DNA from: a virus
Lineage: Duplodnaviria > Caudoviricetes
IMG/VR virus record: IMGVR_UViG_3300032243_000455
Location: 509 to 64,508 of that record
DNA: 64,000 nt
Direction: 5' to 3' (one strand)
A program made the translations under genes and the position numbers. Shown here piece after piece: positions 2,540 through 60,573 of this stretch. Each line of letters begins with the position of its first letter. Position 1 is the stretch's first letter. The notes under the pieces were generated by a model that had not been told where the DNA came from, made no database searches, and worked only from the letters and a program-made list of their open reading frames with translations.

Positions 2540-2837
2540 GAAACTTTTTAAGCCGCCATTAAACATTGTAAAAGAGTGGCCGGAGGTATTTGAAGATATG
2601 TATATGAATACCATGCCGGTCGCTTACTTACATCTTGTTAAGTTAGAATTTAATAATGGCAGAATTTGGGAATTAAGAATTCCAGATCTTGTTAAAGAAT
2701 CCGATTCTGACACAGTGGCTGATAAGTTAGTTGAAATGTTTCAAGAATATCACGACGATATTAAAAACATTAATTTTGAAATCGATATTGAAAAATTAAA
2801 AAAAGATATTGCTAAAGAAACTAAAAAGTTCCTTTAA
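2532..2837 (+). CDS. Hypothetical protein (101 aa)
   Basis: GTG start overlapping the upstream stop; its stop overlaps the convergent minus-strand stop at 2834-2837. Confidence 0.75.
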   Translation: MPKKLFKPPLNIVKEWPEVFEDMYMNTMPVAYLHLVKLEFNNGRIWELRIPDLVKESDSDTVADKLVEMFQEYHDDIKNINFEIDIEKLKKDIAKETKKFL

Positions 2838-4102
2838 GCCTCCGGTTTGTGTTTTTCCATACGCCAGTTACGTCCTTTATCTTCCATCTTTTCGTGGGTA
2901 TAGATCTTATCTACTCTACTATGCGTTCCGCAGATGTTTGCACAATATGCCATCTTTCCGTCTTTACAACTAGGTTTAGTCCATGTGTCAGTAAACACTC
3001 TATCTAAATGATGACCTTCCATTATATCTTTTAATGAATGTAGATTTAGATCAAAATTTTCCCAGCCATATTTTCTTACTTCGTGATGCAATTGTAAACT
3101 TTGACTGTCGCTGTGAACACCGTTTAAATGCGTACCCATATAACAACATGCTATTACTCTGCCATGATTATCAACAAATATTTCTTTACCTTTAGACATT
3201 GTTTCTGCTTTGCATTTAATTACAGCATTATCCAATGTCGAATTATCTTCTCGTGCTAAAAGATCATAAACAGTATCTACACGTTTCCAATAACTAGAAT
3301 CCGCTGTTCTTTTCATTGCTTTTAGTTCCTTGTAGTTTTCTGGATTGAAAGGATAATAACGCATTTCAACAGGTCCAACTGGATTTTCTAAATTTCTGTT
3401 TTTTGGGTCTTCCGGAGCATCGATCCAGTAATCGAGTGTACCTTCTCGAGTAAGTGCCGGCATCCTAACTAAGTTTGTTCCGTTGTCAACACCTAGAGAC
3501 TTTTTAGGATAAAATTCAGCGAATCCCATTTTCTTTGATAATGCAATTGCTTCATCTATTTGGTGTTCGTTATGTTTAAAAATTAAATAATCCCAATTAG
3601 CATACCCGCCAGCATCTATAAATGCCTGTGCGTTGGCTATTAGTTTATCCCATTCTACATTTCTTCGATACAGGTGATTAGTATCTTCTAACCCATCAAT
3701 ACTCCAAGTAATTTCCCAGCGCCAGTGGTCTTGTCTTTGTTTAGCAAATAAGGCGCCTATCTTAGACCAAAATTCTGGTTTGCGCATGCCGCCGTTTGTA
3801 TTCATACGAACTGCTGTGTTGGGATTGGTTTCTGCAATATATTCGCAAATCTCGTATAGATCTTTAGCCATACCCGGATCTCCATGCACCCCGCAGAATA
3901 ATACAATTTCTAATTTTTTTATAACTTCCGGTGGAAAGTATTGTTTAAATTTTTCAATAGTAATTTGTTCTATAATTAAGTCTGGTCGAATTAAAGGACT
4001 ATTGGTGTGAAATCGTGTACACATAGTACATGCAGCATTACAGGCGTTAGTAAGCTCTATATGTATTTGTGTTAGTTCGTCATAATTAAAAAAATTATTC
4101 AT
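2834..4102 (-). CDS. Radical SAM enzyme with C-terminal twitch/SPASM-like domain
   Basis: CxxxCxxC (CNAACTMC); WSIDG; C-terminal C...GRVIACC...C...CANIC auxiliary-cluster pattern. Confidence 0.9.
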   Translation of the reverse strand: MNNFFNYDELTQIHIELTNACNAACTMCTRFHTNSPLIRPDLIIEQITIEKFKQYFPPEVIKKLEIVLFCGVHGDPGMAKDLYEICEYIAETNPNTAVRMNTNGGMRKPEFWSKIGALFAKQRQDHWRWEITWSIDGLEDTNHLYRRNVEWDKLIANAQAFIDAGGYANWDYLIFKHNEHQIDEAIALSKKMGFAEFYPKKSLGVDNGTNLVRMPALTREGTLDYWIDAPEDPKNRNLENPVGPVEMRYYPFNPENYKELKAMKRTADSSYWKRVDTVYDLLAREDNSTLDNAVIKCKAETMSKGKEIFVDNHGRVIACCYMGTHLNGVHSDSQSLQLHHEVRKYGWENFDLNLHSLKDIMEGHHLDRVFTDTWTKPSCKDGKMAYCANICGTHSRVDKIYTHEKMEDKGRNWRMEKHKPEA

Positions 4103-5312
4103 CGTTAAATCCTATAATTTCTGCCCACTCTGGAAATGTTTTTACAAAATCTTCTTTACGATATGCATCGTGAGTTTTGATTGTTTTTTTAAATTGGGCC
4201 CAATGCTGTGGATTATGCTTTCCAACTTTAATAAAATTGATTACTCCTGGTAAAAAATTCTGCCATACTTCATAATCTTTATCAATCGCTTCTAATTTAG
4301 GAATTAATTTTTCCTTAACATCTTCTGGTATGTAAGATATGTTATAATGTTGTGGGCCGTGAACTAAATTTAAATATATCCCAAAATCGCTAAATTCTTT
4401 ATAAAAAGTATCTAATAATTCTGGAAGATAAAATATATTCATATTGCTTATTGTATGGCACCAACTAATATGTATATCATGATGTGTTTTTGCAAACTCT
4501 CTAGCCTTGACCATATTTTCTTTAGCTTCTTCCCATATTGCTGGGTTTCTAATATATTCAAATTTATCGTCAACCCCATCTATACTAAAATTTAAATTTA
4601 GATGTTTAAAGTGTTTTAACACTTCAATATTTTCTGTAGGCCAATGAGTAGCATTAGTAGCATAGTGAACTTCAATATCTTTACTGTATCCCTTGTCAAC
4701 TGCCATCTGTAATGTGCGCCACATTTTTTTGCTCATAAAAGGCTCGCCACCATAAAAATCAAACTGCTTAATAGTGTGCAGATTTTGTTCTAGATCATCC
4801 CAGAACGGACTCTCATCGTCGTATGTTTGATGATACCGCTTCATATCTTGAGCATATATTTTAAACGTGGTATGATGCGGCATCTCATGTTTATATACGT
4901 CATAGTATTCTTGCATCCATGTACTACTACTATACGGAGCACAGGTTCGACATTTTAAATTACAGGTATTTCCAAGATTTAATTCAAATTTAGCAAGGCC
5001 AGTAAAGGGTTCGCCGTCTCTAGAAAGATGCCCTAAGTATTTTTCATTATCTCTCAAGCGTTTGCTTTTACGGCCTGCATCTTCTTCTTCCCAGCATAAG
5101 CGACATCTAGGACTTCTAATACCTGCTTGTAAATCTTTACGTATATCTATAAAATCAATTTTTTGAAAATTTTCTTGTATAGTATTGCTATTAAGAGTCA
5201 TTTCTCCTGTATTTTCAATCATACAGCAAATTTTAGTGGTGCCATTATTATTGCCGCTCATTGCGTGATCTGCGTTAACGCACCAAGATTGTTTGTTATT
5301 TTCGTTCATCAT
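4095..5312 (-). CDS. Radical SAM enzyme with N-terminal Cys-rich (twitch-like) domain
   Basis: CNLKCRTC, GGEPF, FSIDG; N-terminal WC...GTTKICC...CRLCW. Confidence 0.9.
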   Translation of the reverse strand: MMNENNKQSWCVNADHAMSGNNNGTTKICCMIENTGEMTLNSNTIQENFQKIDFIDIRKDLQAGIRSPRCRLCWEEEDAGRKSKRLRDNEKYLGHLSRDGEPFTGLAKFELNLGNTCNLKCRTCAPYSSSTWMQEYYDVYKHEMPHHTTFKIYAQDMKRYHQTYDDESPFWDDLEQNLHTIKQFDFYGGEPFMSKKMWRTLQMAVDKGYSKDIEVHYATNATHWPTENIEVLKHFKHLNLNFSIDGVDDKFEYIRNPAIWEEAKENMVKAREFAKTHHDIHISWCHTISNMNIFYLPELLDTFYKEFSDFGIYLNLVHGPQHYNISYIPEDVKEKLIPKLEAIDKDYEVWQNFLPGVINFIKVGKHNPQHWAQFKKTIKTHDAYRKEDFVKTFPEWAEIIGFNDE

Positions 5313-6660
5313 AATTATTGTATGTATCCTTGCATAATGCGTAGAAATCTGTGTATTCTGGAAATGTTTTTAGTAGATCAGTTCCTAATCGTTTGTCGTT
5401 TTCCGTAAAGAAACTATAAAAATCTCTACGGCCTGCTTGAATTTTTTCAGCAGGTACTGTTTTTGCCTTCATATAATCGGTAACACGAAGGAATTTTTCA
5501 TATTCGACATCAGTAAACCATTGCTTGTTATCTAGAATATATTTTAAAGTATTATCCATATACACAATAAAATCATCTGTTAGAATATTAATCATCCAAT
5601 GTGGAGGTTCTTTTAGATATGGCGTGTCAAATGCTACTGCGTTCATGCCATATTCTTTACGCCATTCGATAACTTTTTCTAGGAGACTTTGAAAATTTGT
5701 TACACATAACACATTAAAAGTACACATCAGATTAACAGTTGCGCCGGTGTTAATAACTGCTTTCATATTGCGTTCCCAATGACCGCATTCCAACCCTGTA
5801 CGCATATATTCTGCTTGTTCTCCCCAACTGTCTATGCTGGTAAAGAAACTAAATTTACGAATTTTCTTTTGTTTAACTAGACTAGTAACTCTAGCAATTA
5901 ATCGGTCTACACGATCAAAGGTCACACCTAGATTACTGTTTAGTGTAATTTCTAAATGCGGGCTTGGTTCGGTTTCTAGTAAATCAAAAAATTGCATCGC
6001 TCCTGGATTCATTAGAGGTTCACCGCCGGTTATGCGCAGAGTATGCAGGTCATTTTTAAGACTTGGCCACCAACGCCAAAACGCTTCGATATAGGGATTT
6101 TCATCTTTAGGACCGTAGTATGTACCGTTGGTCATAAACTCGATGCCGTACTGATTATATGTTAAGTCATAGTTACCGTGTTTCTTGATCTCTTCGGTCC
6201 ACATGGTACTTGCTTGTGGACAGCAATATCCGCAACGATAGTTACAGCCGTTACCAAAGCTGACTTCCAAGTAGCGTGGATTGATAGGAGCGTCCCACGG
6301 TAAATCTGCAACAGTATCAATTAACGGTACACTAAAATCACTGGCACTGTGTATCATGCGATCGCTGATATGTTCGCCTTCTAGGTCCTCAATATTCCAG
6401 CAATATTGGCATTCGTCCGGGCGTTCACCTTCAAGCATTTTTTTACGCTGTTCTTTTTTCCACTTTGTGTTATGCAATGCACTTGCATCGATAACAATTT
6501 CATCCAAGCCGATATGGTGCGGACGTGGATGATAGCAACTATGATTATCACCGGTGTGAAGATATAGTGTTTGATGCAACCATTTCATTGTACAGAAACT
6601 AGGACTAACTGCATTCAGTTTGTCTCTAACTAATTTAATATACTCTATGTTATGCGCCAT
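5296..6660 (-). CDS. Radical SAM enzyme with N-terminal Cys/His-rich domain
   Basis: CNYRCGYC, TGGEPL, TSID; N-terminal FCTMKW...HSCYHP...CQYCW. Confidence 0.9.
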   Translation of the reverse strand: MAHNIEYIKLVRDKLNAVSPSFCTMKWLHQTLYLHTGDNHSCYHPRPHHIGLDEIVIDASALHNTKWKKEQRKKMLEGERPDECQYCWNIEDLEGEHISDRMIHSASDFSVPLIDTVADLPWDAPINPRYLEVSFGNGCNYRCGYCCPQASTMWTEEIKKHGNYDLTYNQYGIEFMTNGTYYGPKDENPYIEAFWRWWPSLKNDLHTLRITGGEPLMNPGAMQFFDLLETEPSPHLEITLNSNLGVTFDRVDRLIARVTSLVKQKKIRKFSFFTSIDSWGEQAEYMRTGLECGHWERNMKAVINTGATVNLMCTFNVLCVTNFQSLLEKVIEWRKEYGMNAVAFDTPYLKEPPHWMINILTDDFIVYMDNTLKYILDNKQWFTDVEYEKFLRVTDYMKAKTVPAEKIQAGRRDFYSFFTENDKRLGTDLLKTFPEYTDFYALCKDTYNNYDERK

Positions 6661-7360
6661 TGTTTAACCTTTTAATTATATCAATTTGCCCAGATGTTTG
6701 GTTTTCTATAAATTCTACTACTATTTTAACCAACTCATCATGTATCGCTTGGTCACCTATATGATTAGGACGCTTATCTTGCTTTTGAAAATAATGTACG
6801 ACCTTGTCTGGCGATTTAAAATCTGCCACTTCTTTTTTTGAAAAATATATTAATGCAGGTTTAATTTCATTTTCAAATGTATCTGAATAATAATATTGCT
6901 GGTCAGTTATATCTATCAGCATTGAATCTAACCAATTAAAGTTTTCTCGTGGAACTTCGACATATGCTGACGGAAAGGACCAAAAAAATAATGCTTTTAG
7001 ATTTTTTTCTGTTATTGTGTTTTTAACTTCACTCATATAAGTCTTTTCTTGAAGCATAGATAGTGTTTTGTTATAGAAATTTGCATAATACAGCTTATAA
7101 ATTTTTTCGTCTTTAGTAATTCCAGGATTTACATAAAATCTACTCGGATCTGACCATCCAAAAAGTATGATATCATCAGGAGTAATATCGTCAATGTATT
7201 TTAAATAATTTAAATATATTTCATGATTACTTGCTCCACCGACAGCAGTATTGATAACTTCAGGATATTTTGCATGCAACTGCACAATCCAGCCGGAAGT
7301 ATTATTATCTTCAACCCATCGAGAAAAGAAACTATCCCCAAAAATATAAATCTTAGACAT
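6650..7360 (-). CDS. SGNH/GDSL-fold hydrolase or acyltransferase-like protein
   Basis: IYIFGDSF (block I), AVGGASN (block II), DKRPNH near the C-terminus; start moved to MSKIY (7360), coupled to the upstream stop. Confidence 0.65.
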   Translation of the reverse strand: MSKIYIFGDSFFSRWVEDNNTSGWIVQLHAKYPEVINTAVGGASNHEIYLNYLKYIDDITPDDIILFGWSDPSRFYVNPGITKDEKIYKLYYANFYNKTLSMLQEKTYMSEVKNTITEKNLKALFFWSFPSAYVEVPRENFNWLDSMLIDITDQQYYYSDTFENEIKPALIYFSKKEVADFKSPDKVVHYFQKQDKRPNHIGDQAIHDELVKIVVEFIENQTSGQIDIIKRLNNGA

Positions 7361-8780
7361 CTTGATCCTCACATCTATTCCAGAAATTTTCTAATTCAGG
7401 AAATACTTTTAAAAAATCTGTATTGCGTCTACGATCGTGTTCTGTAAAAAATTTATAGAAATTCGCCATACCGCGTTTTTTGTTGAATCCAGTATCAGAA
7501 TTAATCCAATCAATTAATCGTTGGACCTTACTGATTTCAAAATCTTTAAAACCTTTATGTCTATTCCATCGACCTTCTTTATTTTGAATCATAAATTTCA
7601 TAGTCCTTTCTAGCTCGCTAACTAATTCAGGAATTAATTTAGGATTTAAATAATCCGGATCTTGTAGTTGAGGGATATCAAACCAAACTAGTTGTCTATC
7701 TTTATTATATTTTTTTCGTAATGCTAAAATGTATTCCATATATGAATATATCCCGGTATAACTTAAAGCATTGAATGTGATAATAAATGTTAAACTATGT
7801 TTTCTACTGTGTTTTAAATACATCCTAATATTTTTATTCATCTGTTCAAAGTCTAAGCCATTACGGATATACTCACCCTGAGCTCCGATATTGTCTAAAC
7901 TACAGAATAACATAAAATGATCGATAGCCTCTGCGTCAGTGAGTTCTTTAAGACCCCAAAAGAATTTATTCCACTGGTCACCAGGAGGACAACAATTACT
8001 AGTAATACTTAGATGCAGATCTTCTTTAGGGTGCTGTTTAACGTATTCAAACATACGGAATGTATTTTTATCCATTAACGGTTCGCCACCTGTCATACGG
8101 AATGTATGCAATGTTGGATATATATCAGGCAACCATTCCCAAAAGGCTTTTACATAAGGATTATCAGGACTGTTGTCTATTGGCATTTCATTCTGAATCC
8201 ACATAATATCATTATGCTTTCTATCAGCTAATACATACGGGCCTTCTTTTTTAATTTCGTCCATCCAGGCTGTACTTAGGTGAGGACTGCAATAGCTACA
8301 TTTAAAATTACAGGCCTGATTAAAATTTACTTCTACATATCGCGGATTTGCATTTCCTTCAGCACCAACTAACAGTGCTTCTTCGATGATTCCATCTTCC
8401 CATACATCTTTGCTACGATATGCACGATCACTAAGTTGATTTCCGCTATCTTCGATTTGCCAGCAAAATTCACATTCAGAGGGACGAATCCCACTTAACA
8501 TTAATTTACGTTGAGTCTTTTTATGTTTTGTATTGTGTAAGGCACTTACGTCAATAACTACCTCTTCAAGAGGAATTGCATGAGCCCTGGGATGATAACA
8601 ACTGTGAGTACGACCTGTTGGAATATGGATACTAACATTAAACCACTTGGCCAAACAGAAGCTAGGACTTACTTCATTTAATTCTTTATGAACAAATTCG
8701 GCATCCATCATGTAGTGGGTTTGATATTGCCCGTCTACTTTTTTAACTTCGTTTCCTTTGATGTTTCTATTGAATTTCAT
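7353..8780 (-). CDS. Radical SAM enzyme, paralogue of 5296..6660
   Basis: CNFKCSYC, TGGEPL; N-terminal FCLAKW...HSCYHP...CEFCW. Confidence 0.9.
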   Translation of the reverse strand: MKFNRNIKGNEVKKVDGQYQTHYMMDAEFVHKELNEVSPSFCLAKWFNVSIHIPTGRTHSCYHPRAHAIPLEEVVIDVSALHNTKHKKTQRKLMLSGIRPSECEFCWQIEDSGNQLSDRAYRSKDVWEDGIIEEALLVGAEGNANPRYVEVNFNQACNFKCSYCSPHLSTAWMDEIKKEGPYVLADRKHNDIMWIQNEMPIDNSPDNPYVKAFWEWLPDIYPTLHTFRMTGGEPLMDKNTFRMFEYVKQHPKEDLHLSITSNCCPPGDQWNKFFWGLKELTDAEAIDHFMLFCSLDNIGAQGEYIRNGLDFEQMNKNIRMYLKHSRKHSLTFIITFNALSYTGIYSYMEYILALRKKYNKDRQLVWFDIPQLQDPDYLNPKLIPELVSELERTMKFMIQNKEGRWNRHKGFKDFEISKVQRLIDWINSDTGFNKKRGMANFYKFFTEHDRRRNTDFLKVFPELENFWNRCEDQDV

Positions 8781-10410
8781 ATTGTTCTTTTAACCATTCA
8801 AAGTCATTAATTTTTGCTAATTCGCTAGGAGCATTTTGCCAACACAATCCAAAATATTTTCCTGCGGTGGCGCCGATAAGTGCTTCTTTGCTAAATTCAC
8901 CATGTGCAACTGTTATCCAGGTTTCAAGTCTATGTGCTGTTTCGTCATCGAGTTGACCATCAATAATTTTACTTGATAATTTGCAACATTCTCTAAAAGC
9001 ACTGCGCCATGTGCTAAAAGAATCGGTATTGAACATGGTGATGTTACTAACTTCCGGCATTGCTTTAAATGATTTACTGATGCTAGTAGTCATATCTGCA
9101 GAATTCACATCCATGTCTAATGTCATTTGACGAGGTAATAATTTCACGCCGCCGTATCCATATTCTAGATCATTAATAGGATTTCGACTTCTCCATACAT
9201 GAACAGTAGTAGTTAGCATACGCCTAGCATTGCTGCTATAATAGGGAATTTGTTCTACTGTAAAATCAAAATCATCCACTATCATAGCATCAGCATCAAC
9301 TACCCATAGCATTTCTGTTTCACATAGTTTTGCTGCTTCAATATGCGCTTGATGAATTCCTTTCACCCCGTGTATCCGTTTTGCTCTCGGAAACTTGGCA
9401 AGTAACTTATTATAATTTTCGTCTGCATTTACTTCGTTGTAACTGATAAAAATAATATCAAACGGTTTAGGTTGTGATGCTAATATATCAATTTCTTTTT
9501 TATTGTTTACAAAGAATCTATTATCGAATTCTTTTTTAGCTACTGTATGTTCTTTTGAAAAAATACAGATGCCATCAAAATATTCGCCATTTTTAAATAC
9601 ATGTGGTATATGCTGTTCATATTTAGGAACTTTATAATCAAATTTAAAATCATCGTTAACAACTACATCTTTCCATACTACCCAAAACATTTCTGTTTTA
9701 GAAGTTTCTTTAGCATCAAGATATTCATCGTATGTATCAATGTAGAAAATATTATACGGTGTCGGATATGATGCTAATATATCGATTTCTTTTTTGTCAT
9801 TTACAAAAAATCTATTATCGAATTCTTTTTTAGTAACAGTAACCGTTGTTGGAAAAATACAAATACCGTCGAAGAACTTTCCATTTTTAAATACGTGCGG
9901 AATGTGAGTATTGTACGCTGGCACTTGATAATCAAATTTAAAATTATCACAGATAATCACATCATTCCATACTACCCAAAACATATCGGTTGTAGATGCA
10001 GAGATAGTAGCTAGGTATTCATTATAGGAATTAATATAAAAGATATCGTATGGAATTGGCTTGGTTGCCACGATATCAATTTCTTTTTTATTGTTTACGA
10101 AAAATCGATTTTCAAATTCTCGTTGACTTACATCAGCAGATTTTGGAATTAAACAGATACCGTCAAAGTAATCGCCATTTTTAAATACATGAACATATTC
10201 GTTATCCCACTGTGTGGCTCTATATTCGTTTAAATTAAAATCCGGAGTTAAAATAAGATTGTCCCATACTACCCAAAACATTTTGGTAAAGGCACGCTTC
10301 CGAATATCAGATAAAGATATATTTTTTTCTAATCGTCGAGCACTAGGATAGATAGCTAGTAACGCATCCCATCTGTCGTTGGCATTTCCTAAGAAAAATA
10401 TATCATACAT
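8767..10410 (-). CDS. GT-A-like glycosyltransferase with three N-terminal degenerate repeats
   Basis: C-terminal domain FDIIFISYNE...HIEAAK...WVVDAD (DxD) is clearly paralogous to 10403..11314. Confidence 0.7.
   Translation of the reverse strand: MYDIFFLGNANDRWDALLAIYPSARRLEKNISLSDIRKRAFTKMFWVVWDNLILTPDFNLNEYRATQWDNEYVHVFKNGDYFDGICLIPKSADVSQREFENRFFVNNKKEIDIVATKPIPYDIFYINSYNEYLATISASTTDMFWVVWNDVIICDNFKFDYQVPAYNTHIPHVFKNGKFFDGICIFPTTVTVTKKEFDNRFFVNDKKEIDILASYPTPYNIFYIDTYDEYLDAKETSKTEMFWVVWKDVVVNDDFKFDYKVPKYEQHIPHVFKNGEYFDGICIFSKEHTVAKKEFDNRFFVNNKKEIDILASQPKPFDIIFISYNEVNADENYNKLLAKFPRAKRIHGVKGIHQAHIEAAKLCETEMLWVVDADAMIVDDFDFTVEQIPYYSSNARRMLTTTVHVWRSRNPINDLEYGYGGVKLLPRQMTLDMDVNSADMTTSISKSFKAMPEVSNITMFNTDSFSTWRSAFRECCKLSSKIIDGQLDDETAHRLETWITVAHGEFSKEALIGATAGKYFGLCWQNAPSELAKINDFEWLKEQYEIQ
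9400..10290 (-). repeat. Three tandem ~98-codon (294-nt period) intragenic repeats
   Basis: MFWVVW...HVFKNG..FDGIC...RFFVN.KKEIDI occurs three times; the matching DNA word ATATC(A/G) sits at 9485, 9779 and 10073. Confidence 0.95.
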
Positions 10411-11314
10411 TTTCTGGTATTCTGTAATAAGTAGCGTTTAGATTTAGAGTTTCATTATATAAATCAAGGGTGTACTTACTTTGTACAGCGTCCAGATAAG
10501 GCCAGTGTAATCCTAGACCTAATTTAATTTTTTCGCCTAACGATTTAATTTCTTCTACTAGACCAGTTCCACCAACTTCTTCAAAAGGTCGACCGTACTG
10601 ATTCCATATACCTTCTAGGATTTCAAAATCTCTAACTTCTATATAATTCCATTGTGTACAGTTTGCCAACCATGTACCGAGTCTTGCTCCATATACGGCA
10701 TAGAGACCGTTTTCTTCATGAGCACCGACCGTTGACCACAGGCGCAGTCTATGAATATTATGCCACCAAATACGTTCTTGTATTTCGCCGGGTGGTACTT
10801 TGACTCCGTCTAATAGGGTCATTTTAACACCTTCGCGGAATCCTGCTCTCCATGCTTGAAATGGACTTCCGGTAATAATGCTATCACTGTAACTTACAGG
10901 AAAATTGCGATAGCCCTCTTCCCAACAAAAATCAACCTGGCCGCGATCGCTTTCGCTAGCTTCATGCGTTTTCATAGCAAGGACAAAATCCTTTTTCCAG
11001 ATTTTTAATCCTCCATTGCCGTAACGCAATCCGTTGATAACATTACGGCCGCACCATCCATAGACTTGTATCTTGGGATCATCCATTTTAAGTTCAATAT
11101 TAAAAAACTTAGGATCTACGATATTGTCAGCATCCACAGTAACGAACCATTCAGTTTCGCTTAACGCTGCTGCGGCTTTGTGAGCAGCGTCACTACCTTT
11201 AACTCCGTGTACACGCTTTGCCCAAGGCACTTTATTGCACAAGTCTGCATAATTCTTTTCAGCATTAGGTTCATCATAGCTGAGAAAAATTACATCAAAT
11301 TCTATTACTTTCAT
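10403..11314 (-). CDS. GT-A-like glycosyltransferase
   Basis: FDVIFLSYDE...HKAAA...FVTVDADN (DxD motif after a beta strand). Confidence 0.7.
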   Translation of the reverse strand: MKVIEFDVIFLSYDEPNAEKNYADLCNKVPWAKRVHGVKGSDAAHKAAAALSETEWFVTVDADNIVDPKFFNIELKMDDPKIQVYGWCGRNVINGLRYGNGGLKIWKKDFVLAMKTHEASESDRGQVDFCWEEGYRNFPVSYSDSIITGSPFQAWRAGFREGVKMTLLDGVKVPPGEIQERIWWHNIHRLRLWSTVGAHEENGLYAVYGARLGTWLANCTQWNYIEVRDFEILEGIWNQYGRPFEEVGGTGLVEEIKSLGEKIKLGLGLHWPYLDAVQSKYTLDLYNETLNLNATYYRIPENV

Positions 11315-11892
11315 TTTGTGTCAAATAGATAAACAGGAAATAAGCGTTTGGTGTAGATACTAAATTTTTTAGACAAATCAAGATCTGTAATAATCTGTGG
11401 AGCTGATACTAATTCATCGACTGTGAATTTAATAGCATGTCTTACAATATTAGGATCGTTGTATTCAGTTATTAGGAATGTCATTTCGGTTGAGCCGTCC
11501 CAATGGATTTTTCTTTTCTTGTATTTTTCAGATAATTCAAACGTGAGTGAGTTGTTATCTCGAATAACCATTAGGTCCGCTGTTAATAACCCTGAATAAG
11601 ATTTATCCATAATCCTGTGCAATACATCATCAATTTTTGTAAGACGCTTAATTTCGGCAATTTCAAATTTTCCCGAACTCATATCAACGAAACAGGAATT
11701 TAAACTAATCTTACCGTCGGTAATCAAATGTGCTGTTTCATGATCGATTTCAACACATTGCACATCCTCTGGCAATGCTGTTGAAGGATAAACACCCATT
11801 ACGTCGCCAGTGGCTACGTTAAACGATGCATAGAATTTTATTTCGGGTGGCTTATAATTTGCTAGCCATTCGTCAAAGTCTATTTCTGCCAT
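11311..11892 (-). CDS. Hypothetical protein (193 aa)
   Basis: ORF coupled on both sides within the operon. Confidence 0.8.
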   Translation of the reverse strand: MAEIDFDEWLANYKPPEIKFYASFNVATGDVMGVYPSTALPEDVQCVEIDHETAHLITDGKISLNSCFVDMSSGKFEIAEIKRLTKIDDVLHRIMDKSYSGLLTADLMVIRDNNSLTFELSEKYKKRKIHWDGSTEMTFLITEYNDPNIVRHAIKFTVDELVSAPQIITDLDLSKKFSIYTKRLFPVYLFDTK

Positions 11893-12719
11893 AATTTTTC
11901 TTCCTGTATATTAATAATTTCATCTGTAATTAATTGCTTTTCTACATAGTGAACAATATCGGTTTGTTTAAAATTTCCAATCTTAATTTCATTATCTACA
12001 TTGAAATAGAATCCAACATGATCAGTCCACGAATCTGCCGGCCATGGCCAATTTTGTACCATAGGTTTCATATGTACTACTTTTGGAAATTCTAAAGGGT
12101 ACGCAATTTCATCACCGATATCTAAAATTTTTGCTGCTAACGCAAATGCTTCATCAGTTCCAACTACCCTAGGTTTAAAATCTGGAAAAAATACATTTTT
12201 AAATTCCGTAGGATTTTTAATAATGTATCTGCCCAAAGTAAAAAACTCTTTTGCTAATTCTGAATCTTTCTTGAAAAAAGTATAAAAGGAATACAAATTA
12301 GGTAAATTATTTTTAGTAAATGCTGTACGATAAAAATCATTAGTAACAACTTCACCCCGATAGGTATAAGATTTATTTGCTACATACAACTCACTGTTTT
12401 CAATAAAATATTCTGCCCAATGGCTTACATCTCGTGTAAACAACATATCTGCATCTAAGCATACGGTATAATCAAAAGGACTTAATTGATCCATCCAGCT
12501 GCGTCCATCCCAGAACGTTTCTTTATCCCATTCGATTACATGGTCAAACACCCAAGACGAAGTTAATTTATCCACCGCTTCTTTGTCATCGGTTACTAAT
12601 GCAATATTATTAAATCCATCTTTCTGTGTATTTTTAATACTCAATGCTAGAGAATATGCCAACTTAGTATAGTCAACTTCGTCATTTTTTGCAATGATAA
12701 TTAGATACCCGAAAGTCAT
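11880..12719 (-). CDS. GT8-like glycosyltransferase
   Basis: AYSLALSIK...TVCLDADMLF (DxD) and a C-terminal VHY, the pattern of GT8/glycogenin-like GT-A enzymes. Confidence 0.65.
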   Translation of the reverse strand: MTFGYLIIIAKNDEVDYTKLAYSLALSIKNTQKDGFNNIALVTDDKEAVDKLTSSWVFDHVIEWDKETFWDGRSWMDQLSPFDYTVCLDADMLFTRDVSHWAEYFIENSELYVANKSYTYRGEVVTNDFYRTAFTKNNLPNLYSFYTFFKKDSELAKEFFTLGRYIIKNPTEFKNVFFPDFKPRVVGTDEAFALAAKILDIGDEIAYPLEFPKVVHMKPMVQNWPWPADSWTDHVGFYFNVDNEIKIGNFKQTDIVHYVEKQLITDEIINIQEEKLWQK

Positions 12720-13576
12720 ATTAACTCCAACAATTTTTCTTTATTTCTAATAATGCTTTGTTTGTTCATAATATGTACATCTGTATTTTTAATTGCGCAT
12801 ACCTGATATTTTCCCTCAGTCAGCGGCCCTGCTATTAAAAATAACAATTTGTCATCATCAACATTCCAAAGCATATCACGATCTATAACAGTTAATAGTG
12901 GAGGCAATGTTTTACTTAGATTAGTTTCAAATCCGTCTAAAAAATGTTTTGCAACACTGAATGCAATATCATTTCTATATTGGCGAGTATCAAATCTATA
13001 GACATCACTATATTGATTATAGTTGATTTTAATATCTTTTACAAGCTCAAAAAACAATTTACTTTCTTTATTTTTGGTAAACATAACATTAGTCGCCCAA
13101 AATAAATGTACTCCGGTTTCTGAAACATTTTTATCTAGATATCCGATTCGATCACCTCGAATATCATTCATCGATTGAGAAATCATTACACTAGAATCTA
13201 GATCCCAGTAGTTGTTTAGTTGATCGGAAAAAATTAAGTAGTCGCTATCTAGTAATAGTGTTTGATCGTATGGGGTTAAGTCCCATGCATCGGCACGAGT
13301 CGAATTGATGAATGGGATTGTTTTTGAATCTGTGCCGTCATTTAATCGACGAACATTGCCGGTAACTGGCCTATCAACAATTGTAATTTTTTCAAATACG
13401 GAATTAGCCTTATCCCAAATATTTGATTCGTGCATCCATTCTAATGTTGACTCGTCAGTAATTAATGTTAACGGAATATTGAGGTGTTTTTTGGCTAGGC
13501 CGCCAGATATGACCGCTAACAATGCGTAGTCGATATCTCGACTATTATGAGCAAATATTAGGCCGCCTCGAGTCAT
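12716..13576 (-). CDS. GT8-like glycosyltransferase, paralogue of 11880..12719
   Basis: PYDQTLLLDSDYL (DxD), RND.AFS, HIMNK. Confidence 0.65.
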   Translation of the reverse strand: MTRGGLIFAHNSRDIDYALLAVISGGLAKKHLNIPLTLITDESTLEWMHESNIWDKANSVFEKITIVDRPVTGNVRRLNDGTDSKTIPFINSTRADAWDLTPYDQTLLLDSDYLIFSDQLNNYWDLDSSVMISQSMNDIRGDRIGYLDKNVSETGVHLFWATNVMFTKNKESKLFFELVKDIKINYNQYSDVYRFDTRQYRNDIAFSVAKHFLDGFETNLSKTLPPLLTVIDRDMLWNVDDDKLLFLIAGPLTEGKYQVCAIKNTDVHIMNKQSIIRNKEKLLELI

Positions 13577-13923
13577 AGGTCGACCAATGTTTCTACAGTT
13601 CTACTTTTTTTAAGTTTATCGTATTCTTCTTGATACTCGTAGGTAGCTGTAAAATATCTATCTAAAATTTCGTCTTTGAATTTTACAAGATCTGCAATTA
13701 AAATTGGATTGTCGTTTGAATCAATCAACGGAACATTTGTTTTACGTTCTTGATCAATTAAGAATTGAACAAAACAAATTAATGTTTGATCAATTTTAAA
13801 AATTCCACCAGCATGCCCAAATGTCAATTTAGCAGCAATACGTTCTTTTAAAACCTTACGCTGAAGTGTAAGTGTTTGTTTATAATTTGAAAAATCAAGC
13901 GCATTGGCTAGAAGAGCTTCCAT
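13573..13923 (-). CDS. Hypothetical protein (116 aa), first gene of the enzyme operon
   Basis: Preceded by AGGAG and an ATAAATA motif. Confidence 0.8.
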   Translation of the reverse strand: MEALLANALDFSNYKQTLTLQRKVLKERIAAKLTFGHAGGIFKIDQTLICFVQFLIDQERKTNVPLIDSNDNPILIADLVKFKDEILDRYFTATYEYQEEYDKLKKSRTVETLVDL

Positions 13924-13949
13924 TTATTTCTCCTATAATATAGTCAGTT

Positions 13950-13956
13950 TATTTAT
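13950..13956 (-). promoter_or_regulatory. Late promoter motif ATAAATA heading the rSAM/GT operon
   Basis: Intergenic ATAAATA upstream of AGGAG and ATG 13923. Confidence 0.6.
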
Positions 13957-13982: not shown

Positions 13983-14888
13983 TTAAGAGTAGGTGGGGGC
14001 CACGATATAGAACGAATTTGCTACTAAATTAGGATATAGTGCGCCGACTGCTCGAATATGGGAAGATGTAAATTGTATTGTTCCGCGAACAATGCCGTCG
14101 GGTGGGTTATCTGTAGCTGGGTGGCCTGATGCCACATCAGGGTCAACATACCCATCAGTATAAACAGCAGTAATTATTACCTGTGTAGCACCACCGGATG
14201 AGTTATTACCAATATCGCATCGTGCATATAATTTCCAATTGTTAGCTGCATATGTACTTGTAGAACTTACAATAAAAAATTGTTGGTTAGTACTAGTTAA
14301 TGTATAAAAATTAGTCGAAGGAGTATTACCACCAAAAACAATAGTGCCGGCTCCTGCCAAGGTATCACGCCATGCATTGTTTTGTTGGGTGCTCGTCGAT
14401 GGTGTAAACGATGAAGTAAATCGAAGTTTGCCGCCAGAATTGAAAAAATATCTGGCGGCGGCGGCATTTACAAAAGTTGCGGTAATTGTTAACGAAACAG
14501 AATCGGCCCAATCGCTTGAGTAAGTTTTCGATGTCCCGCCTTCAACAGCATACTGACCTGCAGCAATGTCAAATTTATTTGTAGCAGCCTGTGTAGCTAA
14601 TGTAAGATATTGATAGTTTGGTTCGGCTGCATTGTAGACAATAGTGTCTCCCTCATTGACCGTTTTAATTGTCGGTAATGCCCCTGTTTGGTGTACAATA
14701 CTATTGACAATATCAAATCGTAAATTGTCCCATTGTGTTTTGGTTACAGAATCACCAAGCACGGCGGCGGTAGCTGCGGCGGCAGTTTGACCGTACCCAG
14801 TATTTCCCGAACCTGTAGATATGATAGGATTGATAATATTTCGTATATTGTTATAATCTGGTACGCTAATTATATCATAAACTGCCAT
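13983..14888 (-). CDS. Putative virion structural protein (fibre/baseplate-associated), paralogue of 14918..15871
   Basis: T/S/A/G-rich; shares YN.IR..I...GYGQ...T..QWD.LR.DI.N and ARYF.N.GG..RF.SS with its neighbour. Confidence 0.65.
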   Translation of the reverse strand: MAVYDIISVPDYNNIRNIINPIISTGSGNTGYGQTAAAATAAVLGDSVTKTQWDNLRFDIVNSIVHQTGALPTIKTVNEGDTIVYNAAEPNYQYLTLATQAATNKFDIAAGQYAVEGGTSKTYSSDWADSVSLTITATFVNAAAARYFFNSGGKLRFTSSFTPSTSTQQNNAWRDTLAGAGTIVFGGNTPSTNFYTLTSTNQQFFIVSSTSTYAANNWKLYARCDIGNNSSGGATQVIITAVYTDGYVDPDVASGHPATDNPPDGIVRGTIQFTSSHIRAVGALYPNLVANSFYIVAPTYS

Positions 14889-14906
14889 GGGTGTCCTCCA
14901 ACTTGA

Positions 14907-14913
14907 TATTTAC
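14907..14913 (-). promoter_or_regulatory. Late promoter variant GTAAATA
   Basis: Intergenic, upstream of GGAGG and ATG 14888. Confidence 0.45.
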
Positions 14914-14917
14914 GTAA

Positions 14918-15871
14918 TTAGGAGCCGCTAATGGCAGAAACTGAGTAGGTAGGAGGTGTAATGGCAAAATTTCCAGAGCCTGTAGGTAATAATGTGCCGG
15001 CTGCTCGAATTTCGGTCGTATTAAGAGTTAATGTTCCGTCTACAGTATCGCCTGGCGGGACTTCGGGTCCTGAATCTACATACCCGTCAACCCACTGAAT
15101 ATTAAATGTATATATTCTTCCTGTACCTGTAGAATTATTAGCAACATCTACCTTGGCCTGTAATCTAAATTTATTATTAGAGTACGGAGAAGATGCTGAA
15201 TTTTCATAATATGTTTGAAAAGAATTTGTTAAGGTATAAACTCCTACGCCCGTGGGTGTTACAGTTCGATTATTAAAATCTTGATTTCCTACCGCAGTTA
15301 ACAATCTTGTCCATGCAGTATTTTGATCTAGTGCTGTGCCGCCTGATCTAGAAGAGCTAAATCTAATTACGCCGCCCGCATTCCAAAAATATCTTGCTTG
15401 ATCTGAAGTTGCAAATGTCATAGTTAATTGACAAGAAACAGAATTAGCCCAAGCTGTAGATCTTGTAACAGCGGCAATTGGTGTTCTAGTTATCGATTGG
15501 GTGGTTGCTATTCTATATCGATTACTTGTAACTGTATCAGCAGTCGTATTATATTGGTAATTAGGTTGAGATGACCCATACCTGATAGGATCGGCCTGTG
15601 AAACAACGATCAAATCCGGTATTGTATCCAATTGATGCACATGCGCATTGATGATATCCCATCTCAAATCATCCCATTGTGCTTTTGTTATTTTTCTTTT
15701 TTCAAGAACAGGATCAGCTGCATTTACAGCACTACTATTTAATTGTTGGCCGTAACCAAAATCGGCAGTTACGCCGTTGCCTACACCACCAATACCCATC
15801 ACATTAGAAATTTTTGTTCTAATGGTATTGTAGTCTGATGCTGATATAATTACTCCGACGCCTGCTGCCAT
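14918..15871 (-). CDS. Putative virion structural protein, paralogue of 13983..14888
   Basis: Shared motifs as above; preceded by AAGGA. Confidence 0.65.
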   Translation of the reverse strand: MAAGVGVIISASDYNTIRTKISNVMGIGGVGNGVTADFGYGQQLNSSAVNAADPVLEKRKITKAQWDDLRWDIINAHVHQLDTIPDLIVVSQADPIRYGSSQPNYQYNTTADTVTSNRYRIATTQSITRTPIAAVTRSTAWANSVSCQLTMTFATSDQARYFWNAGGVIRFSSSRSGGTALDQNTAWTRLLTAVGNQDFNNRTVTPTGVGVYTLTNSFQTYYENSASSPYSNNKFRLQAKVDVANNSTGTGRIYTFNIQWVDGYVDSGPEVPPGDTVDGTLTLNTTEIRAAGTLLPTGSGNFAITPPTYSVSAISGS

Positions 15872-15880
15872 TTTTATTCC

Positions 15881-17725
15881 TTATAGTATCACTGATTCTA
15901 CTAATTTAACACCTGCATCGTCACTTGATTCTAATGCAATTGCAAATGTATCTAAACGATCGGTAGCGGCTTTTGCACACCCCCAGTCAGTTGCAACTAA
16001 TCTGTCACCTTTTTGAACCATACCAATTACCTTGACTGGCACGCGACCTTTAAGAGCAATATACGTACCACCTTCTAGATCCTTATTCATCATAAGCGCA
16101 GGATTTGCGCTAACTGCACCAATCGCTAGGTCACCATAAGAGCTCGCAGTAACTTCTTTTTCACCGCCAACTACTACAACTGTGCCAACTTCATATTCTT
16201 TATCTGCAAGATACTTTTCTGCTAAGTCAGCATATCTTGCTGCAAGAGCTGTGCCGTCAAATATTTCTGCATGCAATGTGCCAGCGCCGTCTCGGACTGC
16301 TATTGTATTAAAACTATTCACTGTTGATGCAGTTCTATAAGAACCGCTAACATTGAGTGTGTCTGCCTGTGTAGCTGTACCAATAAATGATGTTGCATTA
16401 ATGTTACCACTAGTATCTCTAACGACTACCGTTGATGCTACAGCGGCAACATTAGGACTATAAGTTCCTAATTTCTTAGCAGTTCCTGCTTCACCAGAGA
16501 CATCACCAGAGACATCACCATACACTGTTGTACGAAGAAGGGGCGATCCTAGCTGTCCATAAAATATTTTATTTGTGGCATCAAATGCCTGAGTGCCGTT
16601 GTTAGCATTAATATTGGCTGTTAACACTCTCGATGTGCTATTTAATATCGGGGTTGCTGCTGGATTTGTTAATTCAACAATATTTCCGTTTAATACACCA
16701 TACAGGTTAGAAGCATGTACTTCTTTCCACACATAACTGGTACTACCGACTGTGCCGCCTAGATTTAAATTGCCGGAAATAGCAGGAAAAATTCCTGTTG
16801 ATCGTATTTTATAAAGATTTAAACTAGTACTATCATTTATTTTAAATCTAAGCGTTATAGGTGAGTTCGGTTGACGCTGCTCGATTACGATTTGATCTTC
16901 ATCGCGATTTGGATCGCCGCCTGTGCTTGCAGCGAATGGATCTTGACTTTCTTTATGGACTAGTAATTCTTTACCAGCGCCTAGATAAAAACCATTATCG
17001 TTTCTAAACCATGCCTGCTCATCAAAATTTAAATCACCTTTTTGTAAAAATACCGATGCTTCAAGTCCGCCTAGTTTCAATGAGTTTGATGCTGTGCCCC
17101 AAAAATACTGCTGTGCGGCTGGTGTTGTTATTCCTGATGTTGCGTCTGTGTTAATTAGTGTAATTCCTTTTTTAACACGACTAAATCCAACTATAGGATT
17201 AATATTTCCAATAATAAAATCAACTTTACTTATAATTGCCAGGGTTACTCCGCCTGCCTGTAGTTCTACAATAGGCACAGGAGTACCTAATGTATCTTGA
17301 ATTGTTCTACTAATTGCGCCGCTGGCACCAGCCTCTGGTGCTGCTGCTGGTCCGATTAATACAAAATTTGTTCCAGACCATGTATAAAGCTGTTTAGATG
17401 TATCGTTGAACCATAAGTCGCCAGCTACCAATCCGGCCGGTGCAGTTGTACTAACGACTGCACCACTAGCTACCTTATATTGTGAACCATCATAAAATTT
17501 TAATTTTTTAGTAACGCTGTCATACCAAATTTGTCCAGCCACCGATTTAGGAGGAGCTGAAACACCTGCAAAACTTTCTAGCAAATGCAGGAAATTTTCG
17601 TTTTGAATTTCACCGTAACCTGCATAGTTTTTACCTACAAACCGCAGATCCGTTGTGGTATCAATAGTTCCGTCTTCTACAGATACTAAAAATGCTCCAT
17701 TATATCGATTAACTTGATACGCCAT
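15881..17725 (-). CDS. Tail fibre/spike with C-terminal intramolecular chaperone (Peptidase_G2-like)
   Basis: Shared fibre N-terminal domain (GKNY.GYGE..NENFLHLLE.FA...GQIWYD); C-terminal ARYADLAEKY.AD..YEVGTVV...GRVPVKV. Confidence 0.8.
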   Translation of the reverse strand: MAYQVNRYNGAFLVSVEDGTIDTTTDLRFVGKNYAGYGEIQNENFLHLLESFAGVSAPPKSVAGQIWYDSVTKKLKFYDGSQYKVASGAVVSTTAPAGLVAGDLWFNDTSKQLYTWSGTNFVLIGPAAAPEAGASGAISRTIQDTLGTPVPIVELQAGGVTLAIISKVDFIIGNINPIVGFSRVKKGITLINTDATSGITTPAAQQYFWGTASNSLKLGGLEASVFLQKGDLNFDEQAWFRNDNGFYLGAGKELLVHKESQDPFAASTGGDPNRDEDQIVIEQRQPNSPITLRFKINDSTSLNLYKIRSTGIFPAISGNLNLGGTVGSTSYVWKEVHASNLYGVLNGNIVELTNPAATPILNSTSRVLTANINANNGTQAFDATNKIFYGQLGSPLLRTTVYGDVSGDVSGEAGTAKKLGTYSPNVAAVASTVVVRDTSGNINATSFIGTATQADTLNVSGSYRTASTVNSFNTIAVRDGAGTLHAEIFDGTALAARYADLAEKYLADKEYEVGTVVVVGGEKEVTASSYGDLAIGAVSANPALMMNKDLEGGTYIALKGRVPVKVIGMVQKGDRLVATDWGCAKAATDRLDTFAIALESSDDAGVKLVESVIL

Positions 17726-17748
17726 TACTTTGCTCCATTATCTATTGT

Positions 17749-17755
17749 TATTTAT
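17749..17755 (-). promoter_or_regulatory. Late promoter motif ATAAATA
   Basis: Intergenic, upstream of GGAG and ATG 17725. Confidence 0.55.
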
Positions 17756-17766
17756 CTGAACCTTTT

Positions 17767-19884: not shown

Positions 19885-19901
19885 TCTTGTTCGCCCCTTT
19901 A

Positions 19902-21809: not shown

Positions 21810-21823
21810 AGTTTATTCCGTTA

Positions 21824-60324: not shown

Positions 60325-60573
60325 ATGCTCCTACGTGAATTCTTTTATTTTAACAATACCACCAATGACTTTTCAGTCGATCAACGATATGAAAGCTCTA
60401 GAGATAGCACTGTGGTTAAAAAATCAGACACACGTAAACTGCGCCTAACACTAGGACAGATCAACCAGCTGCGTATTCAAAGTGAAGCGCATGAGTTCGA
60501 AGAAGAATCCGAACGTGCTTTCATACAACAAATGTACGGAACTCCAGTTGAAGCAGAACAATCCGCAGAATGA
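60325..60573 (+). CDS. Small head-module protein (82 aa)
   Basis: ORF between the portal and the prohead core genes. Confidence 0.7.
   Translation: MLLREFFYFNNTTNDFSVDQRYESSRDSTVVKKSDTRKLRLTLGQINQLRIQSEAHEFEEESERAFIQQMYGTPVEAEQSAE

Follow-up and report, generated by a model that had tools for sequence, protein, structure and literature searches.

Glycosylation by phages is known for their DNA, for the O-antigens of their hosts and for the virions of mycobacteriophages, and none of these kinds is known to use radical S-adenosylmethionine (radical SAM) chemistry. Here we analyse an operon of eleven genes (g1 to g11) in a 64,000-nt stretch of viral DNA (Duplodnaviria, Caudoviricetes; IMG/VR record IMGVR_UViG_3300032243_000455, positions 509 to 64,508), called the window below. 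The operon couples sugar transferases with a radical SAM family that is catalogued but unstudied, beside the receptor-binding genes of a jumbo-phage lineage. An earlier reading of the letters of this DNA (the sequence-only reading) took the operon for a late-expressed pathway that builds and tailors a glycan on virion proteins, and knew of no described phage pathway of this kind.

The last statement was too strong. The host recognition cluster of pelagimyophages and cyanomyophages is a hypervariable region whose transferases have been read as modifiers of the host O-chain (Zaragoza-Solas et al. 2020, PMC7029224). It resembles our locus in lying beside the tail-fibre genes of aquatic T4-type myoviruses and in carrying cassettes of GT8 and radical SAM genes, which in pelagimyophages stand next to the fibre genes (PMC7029224). 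The locus described here differs in having a defined core whose strict order persists over identities of 98% to 27% and extends to a Ralstonia phage from soil; the paper on the host recognition cluster (PMC7029224) does not analyse the radical SAM family or the GT-A family. Glycosylation of virions has been established by experiment in mycobacteriophages, at the C-termini of capsid and tail-tube proteins (Freeman et al. 2023, as cited in PMC12619734). There, too, phage glycosyltransferases are found next to structural genes; that system, however, has no radical SAM enzymes, and in our case the putative acceptor would be fibre proteins.

Cytoplasmic glycosylation of a viral capsid is ascribed to A64R of chlorovirus PBCV-1 by the title of PDB entry 2p6w. 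A64R (2p6w, 2p72 and 2p73) is comparable with g5 as a soluble cytoplasmic viral enzyme of the GT-A fold and aligns with it in VIA-align at Z 9.5–9.7, but only the nucleotide-sugar domain of ∼145 residues aligns, at 14–20% identity, many other GT-A enzymes do equally well or better by Z, and PBCV-1 is a eukaryotic virus whose enzyme has no radical SAM partners. The phage clusters that place glycans on DNA likewise contain several sequential GT-A/GT-B transferases, sometimes near structural genes (Pyle et al., bioRxiv 10.1101/2023.12.21.572611; PMC13326640). They differ in having a precursor enzyme (a hydroxymethylase or hydroxylase homologous to thymidylate synthase, or a C5-methyltransferase with 5mYOX), none of which occurs on the contig of the window or in a 335-kb relative, and radical SAM enzymes are mentioned in neither paper (bioRxiv 10.1101/2023.12.21.572611, PMC13326640; 0 mentions). 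The Moraphages, with four core glycosyltransferases, were considered as a match and rejected: they belong to a different lineage with Bacteroidota hosts and are kin of sediment huge phages (PMC12619734).

Eleven minus-strand ORFs between 13923 and 2834 make up the operon. Its description in the sequence-only reading as eleven co-oriented genes with ten overlapping junctions was confirmed: all 10 junctions overlap, by 4, 4, 13, 4, 8, 14, 20, 11, 17 and 8 nt in the order g1 to g11. From the list of enzymes given in the same reading, four radical SAM proteins and four glycosyltransferases stand, while g1, which is DUF4376-like, and g4 are not enzymes of known type. Membrane segments were found in none of the 11 proteins (maximal Kyte–Doolittle hydropathy over 19 residues, KD19, 1.44), and genes for sugar-nucleotide synthesis are absent from the operon. 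Searches of Pfam, PHROG and NCBIfam returned nothing usable for g1 to g6 and g8, apart from a sub-threshold GT8C fragment in g6.

We consider it probable that the operon is a glycan-building and tailoring pathway. This reading is well supported by the GT8 and GT-A folds, taken with the sugar-tailoring genes added in related clusters and with the actinomycete relatives of g5 that lie beside glycosyltransferase genes. What the sequences show is the gene structure, the families and folds, the synteny and the promoter types; the sugar donors, the reaction types and the acceptor are inferred. The four GT-A-fold transferases (two of GT8 and two of an uncatalogued GT-A type) would put a short glycan on an acceptor in the infected cell, with nucleotide sugars of the host as donors. 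Three N-terminal-twitch (N-twitch) radical SAM enzymes and one further radical SAM enzyme would edit the sugars through hydrogen abstraction by the 5′-deoxyadenosyl radical, the candidate outcomes being oxidation, epimerisation, deoxygenation and formation of C–C or C–O bonds. In the lineage of the window the optional SGNH-like g8 may add or remove an acyl group. The most likely acceptor would be a virion protein, above all the fibre-distal u1 and u2, which are encoded just upstream and which g1 would handle as their chaperone.

The four glycosyltransferases are supported at the level of family or fold, as a GT8 pair (g2 and g3) and a GT-A pair (g5 and g6). For the GT8 pair the support is at family level. 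The g3 profile matches glycogenin-1 chains of the PDB (E = 7e-8, over profile positions 3–102 only), and the protein has an LDADM motif (DAD at 89–91, with D91 invariant) and an invariant H216/K218. The g2 profile matches glycogenin weakly (E = 0.04) and aligns with g3 by hhalign at a probability of 99.7 (E = 5e-27); its DSD is at 110–112, and D110-x-D112 is invariant. Retaining transfer from a UDP-sugar is only a prediction for this pair.

The profile of g5 had no match among PDB sequences and a fold search was needed. In the AlphaFold2 (AF2) model (pLDDT 88.8) residues 1–148 have the GT-A fold, and the top Foldseek match is the PBCV-1 capsid glycosyltransferase A64R (E = 5e-6). Structure prediction of the enzymes against BtrN, GT2 and GT8 had been proposed in the sequence-only reading; for g5, VIA-align gave Z 9.5–11 to many GT-A enzymes. 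The DxD motif lies at 61–63, with D61 and D63 invariant, and no structural match was found for the helical C-terminal domain. Apart from the radical SAM genes, g5 is the best-conserved gene of the operon. It has at least 8000 metagenomic homologues, on contigs of up to 369 kb, none of which is annotated, and its family is without a Pfam model. Members ∼30% identical occur in actinomycete isolates (Micromonospora, Streptomyces, Saccharopolyspora and Actinosynnema), where they adjoin GT4/GT1 or GT2 genes and where one copy (L102) is fused to a GT1-type domain.

The C-terminal GT-A domain of g6 (residues 317–525, motif VVDADAM) is related to g5 (35% identity, E = 2e-32). Ahead of it the protein shows three repeat units of ∼98 aa; in the DNA these appear at 9454–10120 as 2.3 tandem copies with a period of 294 and a 74% match. 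By sequence the units look like partial copies of a GT-A domain that lack the DxD. Each of them has MFWVVW where the C-terminal catalytic domain has MLWVVDAD. The length of g6 ranges from 441 to 871 aa among relatives, and the number of repeat copies varies widely.

The four radical SAM enzymes named in the sequence-only reading are all present, three of them N-twitch proteins of NCBIfam family NF033640 (N_Twi_rSAM) and the fourth of a different type. The scores of g7, g9 and g10 (Table 1) extend over the whole NF033640 model, whose curated cut-off is 170 bits; g11, with 51 bits, is below it and is not a member. With Pfam Radical_SAM (PF04055) g11 scores 31.0 bits (cut-off 29.5) and g10 39.8 bits, both above the cut-off, and g9 (28.3) and g7 (23.4) fall just below; g11 also matches phrog_21308 (E = 4e-18). 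The CX3CX2C motif is present in all four proteins, at 157–164 in g7, which has N-terminal cysteines at 42, 61, 103 and 106, at 139–146 in g9 and at 21–28 in g11, whose C-terminal half is rich in cysteine. An alignment of 20 N-twitch paralogues from the window and related loci shows no variation at C11, C70, C73, the triad C117/C121/C124 and GGEP, while at least 90% of the sequences have C30 (g10 numbering). The N-terminal module thus aligned has the layout CX13GX4C...CX2C ahead of the SAM cluster, which we take to be a SPASM/twitch-type motif. As full-length members with the N-terminal cysteine module, CX3CX2C and GGEP, g7, g9 and g10 agree with NF033640, but that family is a catalogue entry only, and here its members are paralogues within a phage operon that also has glycosyltransferases. 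The most conserved of them is g9, with up to 86% identity in loci whose GT8 genes are 60–68% identical. Among PDB sequences the radical SAM proteins found SkfB (E = 1e-3) or NifB (E ∼ 0.9) only, which gives neither a template nor a clue to the substrate. After NF033640 the best families for g10 are the peptide maturases SkfB, PapB, DynA, mycofactocin and ACGX, far below their cut-offs. A search of the literature on NF033640 found no paper on its reaction or substrate.

Table 1. Coordinates of the operon, of the genes upstream of it and of actinomycete homologues of g5 (window positions, or locus and position for the last row).
Feature	Position	Strand	Remark
ATAAATA late-promoter-like motif	13950..13956	-	26 nt before g1 ATG
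g1, 116 aa, DUF4376-like small protein, probable tail-fibre chaperone	13573..13923	-	fold-level matches; overlaps g2 by 4 nt
g2, 286 aa, GT8-like (glycogenin-type GT-A) glycosyltransferase	12716..13576	-	paralogue of g3
g3, 279 aa, GT8 (glycogenin-like) glycosyltransferase	11880..12719	-	profile match to glycogenin-1
g4, 193 aa, variable, no family	11311..11892	-	viral hypothetical clusters only
g5, 303 aa, GT-A-fold transferase with helical C-terminal domain	10403..11314	-	AF2 model, fold searches
g6, 547 aa, three N-terminal repeats and g5-like GT-A domain	8767..10410	-	BLASTP to g5
g7, 475 aa, N-terminal-twitch radical SAM	7353..8780	-	NF033640 321.7 bits
g8, 240 aa, SGNH/GDSL-like candidate esterase/acyltransferase, accessory	6650..7372	-	motifs only
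g9, 454 aa, N-terminal-twitch radical SAM	5296..6660	-	NF033640 290.8 bits
g10, 405 aa, N-terminal-twitch radical SAM	4095..5312	-	NF033640 315.4 bits
g11, 422 aa, radical SAM of another type	2834..4102	-	Pfam Radical_SAM 31 bits
u1 (301 aa) and u2 (317 aa), paralogous fibre-associated proteins	13983..15871	-	directly upstream of operon
four tail-fibre-like genes, common N-terminal anchor domain	15881..23905	-	PHROG tail-fibre and virion structural families
actinomycete g5 homologues	L094:9992-10696, L097:10001-10603, L099:9983-10699, L102:10048-11994		

A scan of IMG/VR with g10 yielded 66 loci. The g5 profile, run against prokaryotic assemblies, added 19 phage-like contigs binned into metagenome-assembled genomes (MAGs) as well as true cellular homologues. 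Co-occurrence across related phages, which the sequence-only reading had proposed as a check, was found: more than 80 phage loci share a core of fibre gene, u-protein gene, g1, two GT8 genes, GT-A, radical SAM and GT-A. Identity falls from 98% to ∼27% without a change in the order fibre, u, g1, g2, g3, (g4), g5, ..., radical SAM genes. The number of radical SAM genes ranges from one through four in the window to at least nine in L061, and that of N-twitch paralogues, three in the window, from one to at least seven in relatives. The single radical SAM gene is that of the 344-kb Ralstonia jumbo phage RsoM2USA, the sole cultured carrier of the module among 50,697 phage records. Its ORFs 354–350 correspond to g1–g5, ORF349 is an N-twitch radical SAM protein and ORF348 resembles the C-terminal part of g6; all are annotated as hypothetical, and the paper on this phage (PMC8504454) has no glycan, DNA-modification or expression data on ORFs 348–355.

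Extended clusters add NodU/TobZ-type carbamoyltransferases, GDSL/DUF6071 proteins and a B12-binding radical SAM protein, and also a TauD dioxygenase, an APS-kinase-like protein and a weak GT9 match. Between the GDSL genes and the carbamoyltransferase lies an ORF of 33 residues, M(N/K)WLKN.YNRI.LEI.YRKKLKELRKRDPFIYK, of which 15 loci have a nearly invariant copy and three more a recognisable one (at L046:15221-15322 on the plus strand, and also in L032 and L045–L063). The peptide was ruled out as a part of the conserved core, being absent from the contig of the window, from its clade and from RsoM2USA. Several contigs that bear the module (L076, which is PBPT01000016.1 of 335 kb, L089, L085/L086, L074 and L084) had been binned into MAGs labelled Neomarinimicrobiota, Haliscomenobacter, Bifidobacterium, Polynucleobacter and others; these labels are probably binning artefacts or, in some cases, hints to the host. 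The 335-kb L076 looks like a near-complete jumbo phage genome.

The operon is headed in every lineage by g1, which lies directly downstream of the block of fibre and u genes and is conserved over its full length, with no cysteine-rich or variable core. It has no Pfam, PHROG or NCBIfam match. With the AF2 model (pLDDT 85.9), the first Foldseek match in BFVD was an uncharacterised homologue, followed by a long series of DUF4376 proteins (probability 0.97–1.0, E = 5e-3 to 0.1, query TM-score ∼0.5), and in a language-model search (Atlas) the nearest named cluster was DUF4376 (0.89). Matches to the PDB (Foldseek and wide VIA-align) were generic helical or prefoldin-like ones (E ∼ 0.5, Z ≤ 8) and were rejected as evidence. 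Two DUF4376 proteins, gp27 of Alteromonas phage V22 and gp9 of A5, serve as tail-fibre chaperones, and the gene of each directly follows that of its fibre (PMC7289586, PMC10579305). They share with g1 the place of a small protein directly behind fibre genes and the predicted fold; they differ in length (195–239 aa versus 116 aa), and coupling to enzyme genes is not described for them. By its modelled fold g1 is probably a fibre chaperone, in which case the promoter before g1 would first of all be the promoter of a chaperone. The idea that g1 is the precursor of a ribosomally synthesised and post-translationally modified peptide (RiPP) was rejected, as the protein is conserved end to end without a core-like region.

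Fibre genes do lie directly upstream, as the sequence-only reading had it, in the form of four fibre-like genes together with u1 and u2. The latter two have no family match, and both match one and the same single ORF in relatives. In ORF355 of RsoM2USA a u2-like domain is fused behind the conserved N-terminal domain of a fibre. A second, partial u-like copy is found at 289232–289711 of that genome. Among 29 distinct loci with at least 2 kb of sequence upstream of g2 (g2 identity 27–98%), a u-like gene lies no more than 2.5 kb ahead of g2 in 26, and a fibre-like gene no more than 6 kb ahead in 24. In the 50,697 phage records RsoM2USA is the sole carrier of both a u-like protein and the module. 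We regard u1/u2 as a candidate client of g1 and a candidate acceptor.

The promoter types bear on timing. The motif ATAAATA occurs in 12 copies in the window, nine of them in the 2% of its DNA that is intergenic, where each precedes a like-oriented gene by 7–49 nt. The genes headed in this way include a fibre gene, the gp6-like wedge gene and other structural genes; the copy at 17749, for example, precedes the fibre-like gene 15881–17725. A gp55-type late sigma factor is encoded at 48246–49106 (phrog_12791, E = 1e-79). Such placement of ATAAATA together with a gp55 homologue is the pattern expected of T4-type late promoters; the strict octamer of the T4 late promoter core, TATAAATA, is not enriched in the window. 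A scan of the operon in the window for sigma70-type promoters found none before g1, with counts at chance, and no convincing terminator was found within it. Only one sigma70-type site in the window lies close to a gene start, that of a gp47/SbcD homologue; gp47 is an early gene in T4. By these signals the operon would be a T4-type late transcription unit, and we predict late timing for it in the window.

The same promoter is not found throughout. Of 24 distinct regions upstream of g1, the 11 that come from closer relatives all have ATAAATA at −32 to −38; in eight more distant ones its place is taken by TTGAC(A/C)-N17-TAnnnT ∼25 nt before g1 (near-consensus sigma70-type sites, among them those at L021:3689, L043:3538, L059:3708, L029:1495, L058:1703, L046:1100 and L050:793). 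Three of these contigs (L021, L043 and L059) still have ATAAATA before the adjoining upstream gene for a fibre or u protein. The operon is thus predicted from these sites to be of early type in the sister clade and late in the clade of the window, possibly with late read-through as well. The claim of late expression agrees with the promoter type of the window, which has ATAAATA before g1 and a gp55 homologue, and not with that of the sister clade, and the inference from late timing to a virion target fails as a general argument, since there a sigma70-type promoter heads the same operon. The sequence-only reading had also counted early expression against a virion target; from the promoter type, early expression is what we predict for the sister clade. 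An early-made enzyme can still modify late proteins, so that an early-type promoter does not refute a virion target.

For the product of the pathway our tentative choice is a soluble system of glycan assembly and editing that is co-expressed with a fibre chaperone and has a virion protein, in the first place u1/u2, as its acceptor. The virion target is a best guess and is helped by the likeness of g1 to chaperones; the link to the fibres consists of the order kept in most loci, the overlap of g1 with g2, and the ATAAATA motif common to the operon and to structural genes. Several findings weigh against this choice. The connection between g1 and DUF4376 is statistically weak (Foldseek E = 5e-3 or worse, with no match at the sequence level). 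Timing is not conserved, given the sigma70-type promoter in eight distinct related loci. By sequence the nearest named relatives of the radical SAM family are peptide maturases, and the family itself is without a known reaction. The fold of g5 is almost as close to nucleotidyltransferases (Z 9.4–9.9) as to glycosyltransferases; its invariant DxD favours a transferase over a nucleotidyltransferase. Adjacency to the fibre genes could merely reflect the known plasticity of that genome region. Bacterial GT8 enzymes are best known for the core of lipopolysaccharide (LPS) (PMC7029224), and peripheral LPS enzymes are also without membrane segments. Finally, the virion analysis of RsoM2USA consists of ten major gel bands and does not cover glycans (PMC8504454).

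More speculative, though possible, is that jumbo phages of a widespread aquatic and soil lineage carry a short glycan on their fibre-distal proteins and that N-twitch radical SAM enzymes, in an array that can grow and that is co-expressed with the fibre chaperone, rewrite it; this would amount to post-translational hypermodification of the virion by radical chemistry. Such rewriting would have no described counterpart and would give NF033640 its first reaction. A product carried on the fibres would matter for host recognition, for the stability of the virion and for the recognition of phages by bacteria or grazers; whatever the target, about a dozen distinct types of radical SAM paralogues stand for new enzymology. 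The cultured minimal carrier RsoM2USA, with its one radical SAM gene, makes the question directly testable.

The alternative that survives best, and one that we think unlikely, is remodelling of the host envelope, in which the enzymes would act at the cytoplasmic face on host precursors of capsule, O-antigen or LPS core and so alter the surface of the infected cell; superinfection might thereby be blocked, or the adsorption of progeny to debris prevented. GT8 is the classic family of the LPS core, and GT8 and radical SAM cassettes beside fibre genes have been argued to modify the O-chain (PMC7029224). Transferases of the LPS core are peripheral, so the missing membrane segments are compatible with this idea, but neither the operon nor the extended versions inspected contain a flippase, polymerase, ligase, Gtr-type protein or membrane component. 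An early function would suit the sigma70-type, early-type promoter of the sister clade; in the clade of the window, however, the sole recognisable promoter is a late-type one, and exclusion of superinfection would come late if driven by it. Moreover, the core keeps a strict synteny across freshwater, marine and soil Ralstonia phages, which must have widely different hosts, whereas enzymes specific to host glycans would be expected to vary with the host.

Hypermodification of DNA, to which we give little credence, would place a mono- to oligosaccharide on 5-hydroxymethyl- or 5-hydroxycytosine, edited by the radical SAM enzymes as a defence from restriction or CRISPR. Such chemistry has precedents: phage GT-A/GT-B enzymes put mono- to trisaccharides on 5-hydroxymethylcytosine, some of them encoded near structural genes (bioRxiv 10.1101/2023.12.21.572611), and glycosylated 5-hydroxycytosine is made by way of thymidylate synthase homologues (PMC13326640). 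The sequence-only reading had set DNA modification aside on the position of the genes, which does not suffice, since DNA-glycan clusters can adjoin structural genes (bioRxiv 10.1101/2023.12.21.572611); a late promoter is also compatible with post-replicative modification before packaging. A further point in favour comes from RsoM2USA, which has a homologue of dCMP hydroxymethylase. Its ORF10 (MG752970.1; L072:7607-8443, minus strand), annotated as hypothetical, is closest to the dCMP hydroxymethylase of T4 (E = 1e-22) and to MilA, scores 84 bits to dCMP hydroxymethylase versus 44 bits to ThyA, and has an ND motif that aligns with D179 of T4; it adjoins a dCMP deaminase gene (ORF8), and the genome has a canonical ThyA as well. 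Judged by this gene, the DNA of RsoM2USA probably contains 5-hydroxymethyl-dC, a trait absent from its genome paper.

Against this, over 200 kb of the linear record separate the module from the hydroxymethylase gene, which lies in a neighbourhood of nucleotide metabolism. The 335-kb module-bearing contig G005:C57 has no gene of the thymidylate synthase family and no C5-cytosine methyltransferase; it also gave no Tet/JBP match, an absence that is weak, the search having had no positive control. Two further module-bearing contigs of 183 and 148 kb (G006) are likewise negative. The sequence-only reading had noted the absence of nucleotide-modification genes from the operon, and the contig of the window (18% of its genome) has no thymidylate synthase-family gene or other enzyme making a precursor of an acceptor base. 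The fixed partner of the module is the fibre/u/chaperone block and not replication genes. Taken together, these findings weaken the case for DNA glycosylation.

An improbable third possibility is a soluble small molecule that is not attached to the virion: an edited oligosaccharide, a pseudo-oligosaccharide or a sugar–peptide conjugate, reminiscent of aminoglycosides, Nod factors or mycofactocin, which would serve as an inhibitor, signal or cofactor in infection. The carbamoyltransferase, B12-binding radical SAM, TauD, kinase and GDSL additions recall the tailoring of natural products, homologues of the g5 family are frequent in actinomycetes, and the nearest named relatives of the radical SAM core are SPASM/twitch maturases. 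The near-invariant gene for the 33-residue peptide inside distant clusters would fit as well, but neither the peptide nor the carbamoyltransferase occurs in the window, its clade or RsoM2USA, so that the conserved core is not explained. There is no cyclitol synthase, nonribosomal peptide or polyketide synthase (NRPS/PKS), exporter or self-resistance gene in the operon, and the fixed site behind the fibres and the chaperone-like coupling are left without a reason.

Least likely, and by a low estimate, the radical SAM enzymes act on protein and the transferases glycosylate on their own; polypeptides of the fibre or of other parts of the virion would be cross-linked, epimerised or modified in some other way, as SPASM/twitch enzymes do when RiPPs mature: the maturases that come next among the families of g10, the SkfB match in the PDB (E = 1e-3) and the linkage to fibre and chaperone genes agree with this, but the maturase matches, far below cut-offs, reflect a common SPASM-type core, the N-terminal domain is a Cys4 twitch-like module and not of the RiPP recognition element (RRE) type, g1 is not precursor-like, and the copies of radical SAM genes vary from one to at least nine along with sugar-tailoring additions. 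The SPASM-type core also includes sugar-acting enzymes of the BtrN type, and the operon lacks the combination of a precursor peptide and an RRE that marks RiPP pathways.

The remaining genes are the variable g4 and the accessory g8. For g4 there is no match in Pfam, PHROG or NCBIfam, and the Atlas search gave viral hypothetical clusters only; it is detectable in the closer relatives, and weakly in ORF351 of RsoM2USA, and in distant loci its position is taken by an unlabelled ORF of 117–198 aa. The gene g8 occurs only in the closest relatives (L001–L007 and L009). FGDSF at 11–15, G46 and H204 are invariant in five sequences; a clear GxND is missing, and D199 stands five residues before H204 instead of in a DxxH. 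Pfam Lipase_GDSL_2 matches below its cut-off (E = 0.092, 13.7 bits, cut-off 32.9), and there was no match among PDB sequences. An SGNH protein, as proposed in the sequence-only reading, is plausible from the FGDSF, Gly and His motifs; the assignment lacks a match at family level, and the gene is an accessory one.

The window is part of a single viral contig of 64.5 kb, which CheckV rates as 18% complete; the genome would thus be roughly 350 kb, that of an uncultured freshwater phage. The rest of the window holds the gene set of a T4-superfamily myovirus: besides the late sigma factor there are subunits of a gp46/47-like nuclease, baseplate genes (gp6-like wedge, gp5-like hub, gp25 and a T4 baseplate protein), a portal, a prohead protease and a structural giant of 4787 aa. 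The portal is ∼50% identical to those of the jumbo phages PA5oct (287 kb) and Phosso (469 kb), and with these figures the label of a jumbo phage is plausible and reasonable for the source. A megablast search of the 11-kb operon region against the 50,697 phage records gave no match. The ORF at 60482–61189 (plus strand), between the portal and prohead genes, scores 16.9 bits with Pfam MptE-like (cut-off 34.6) and was not used as support for virion glycosylation.

Two small plus-strand genes (686–967 and 1399–1668) converge on the 3′ end of the operon and are accompanied by ATAAATA at 648–654 and 1385–1391 on the same strand, so that late-type units lie on either flank of the operon. A further plus-strand gene, 2532–2837, meets g11 tail to tail and overlaps its stop by 4 nt.

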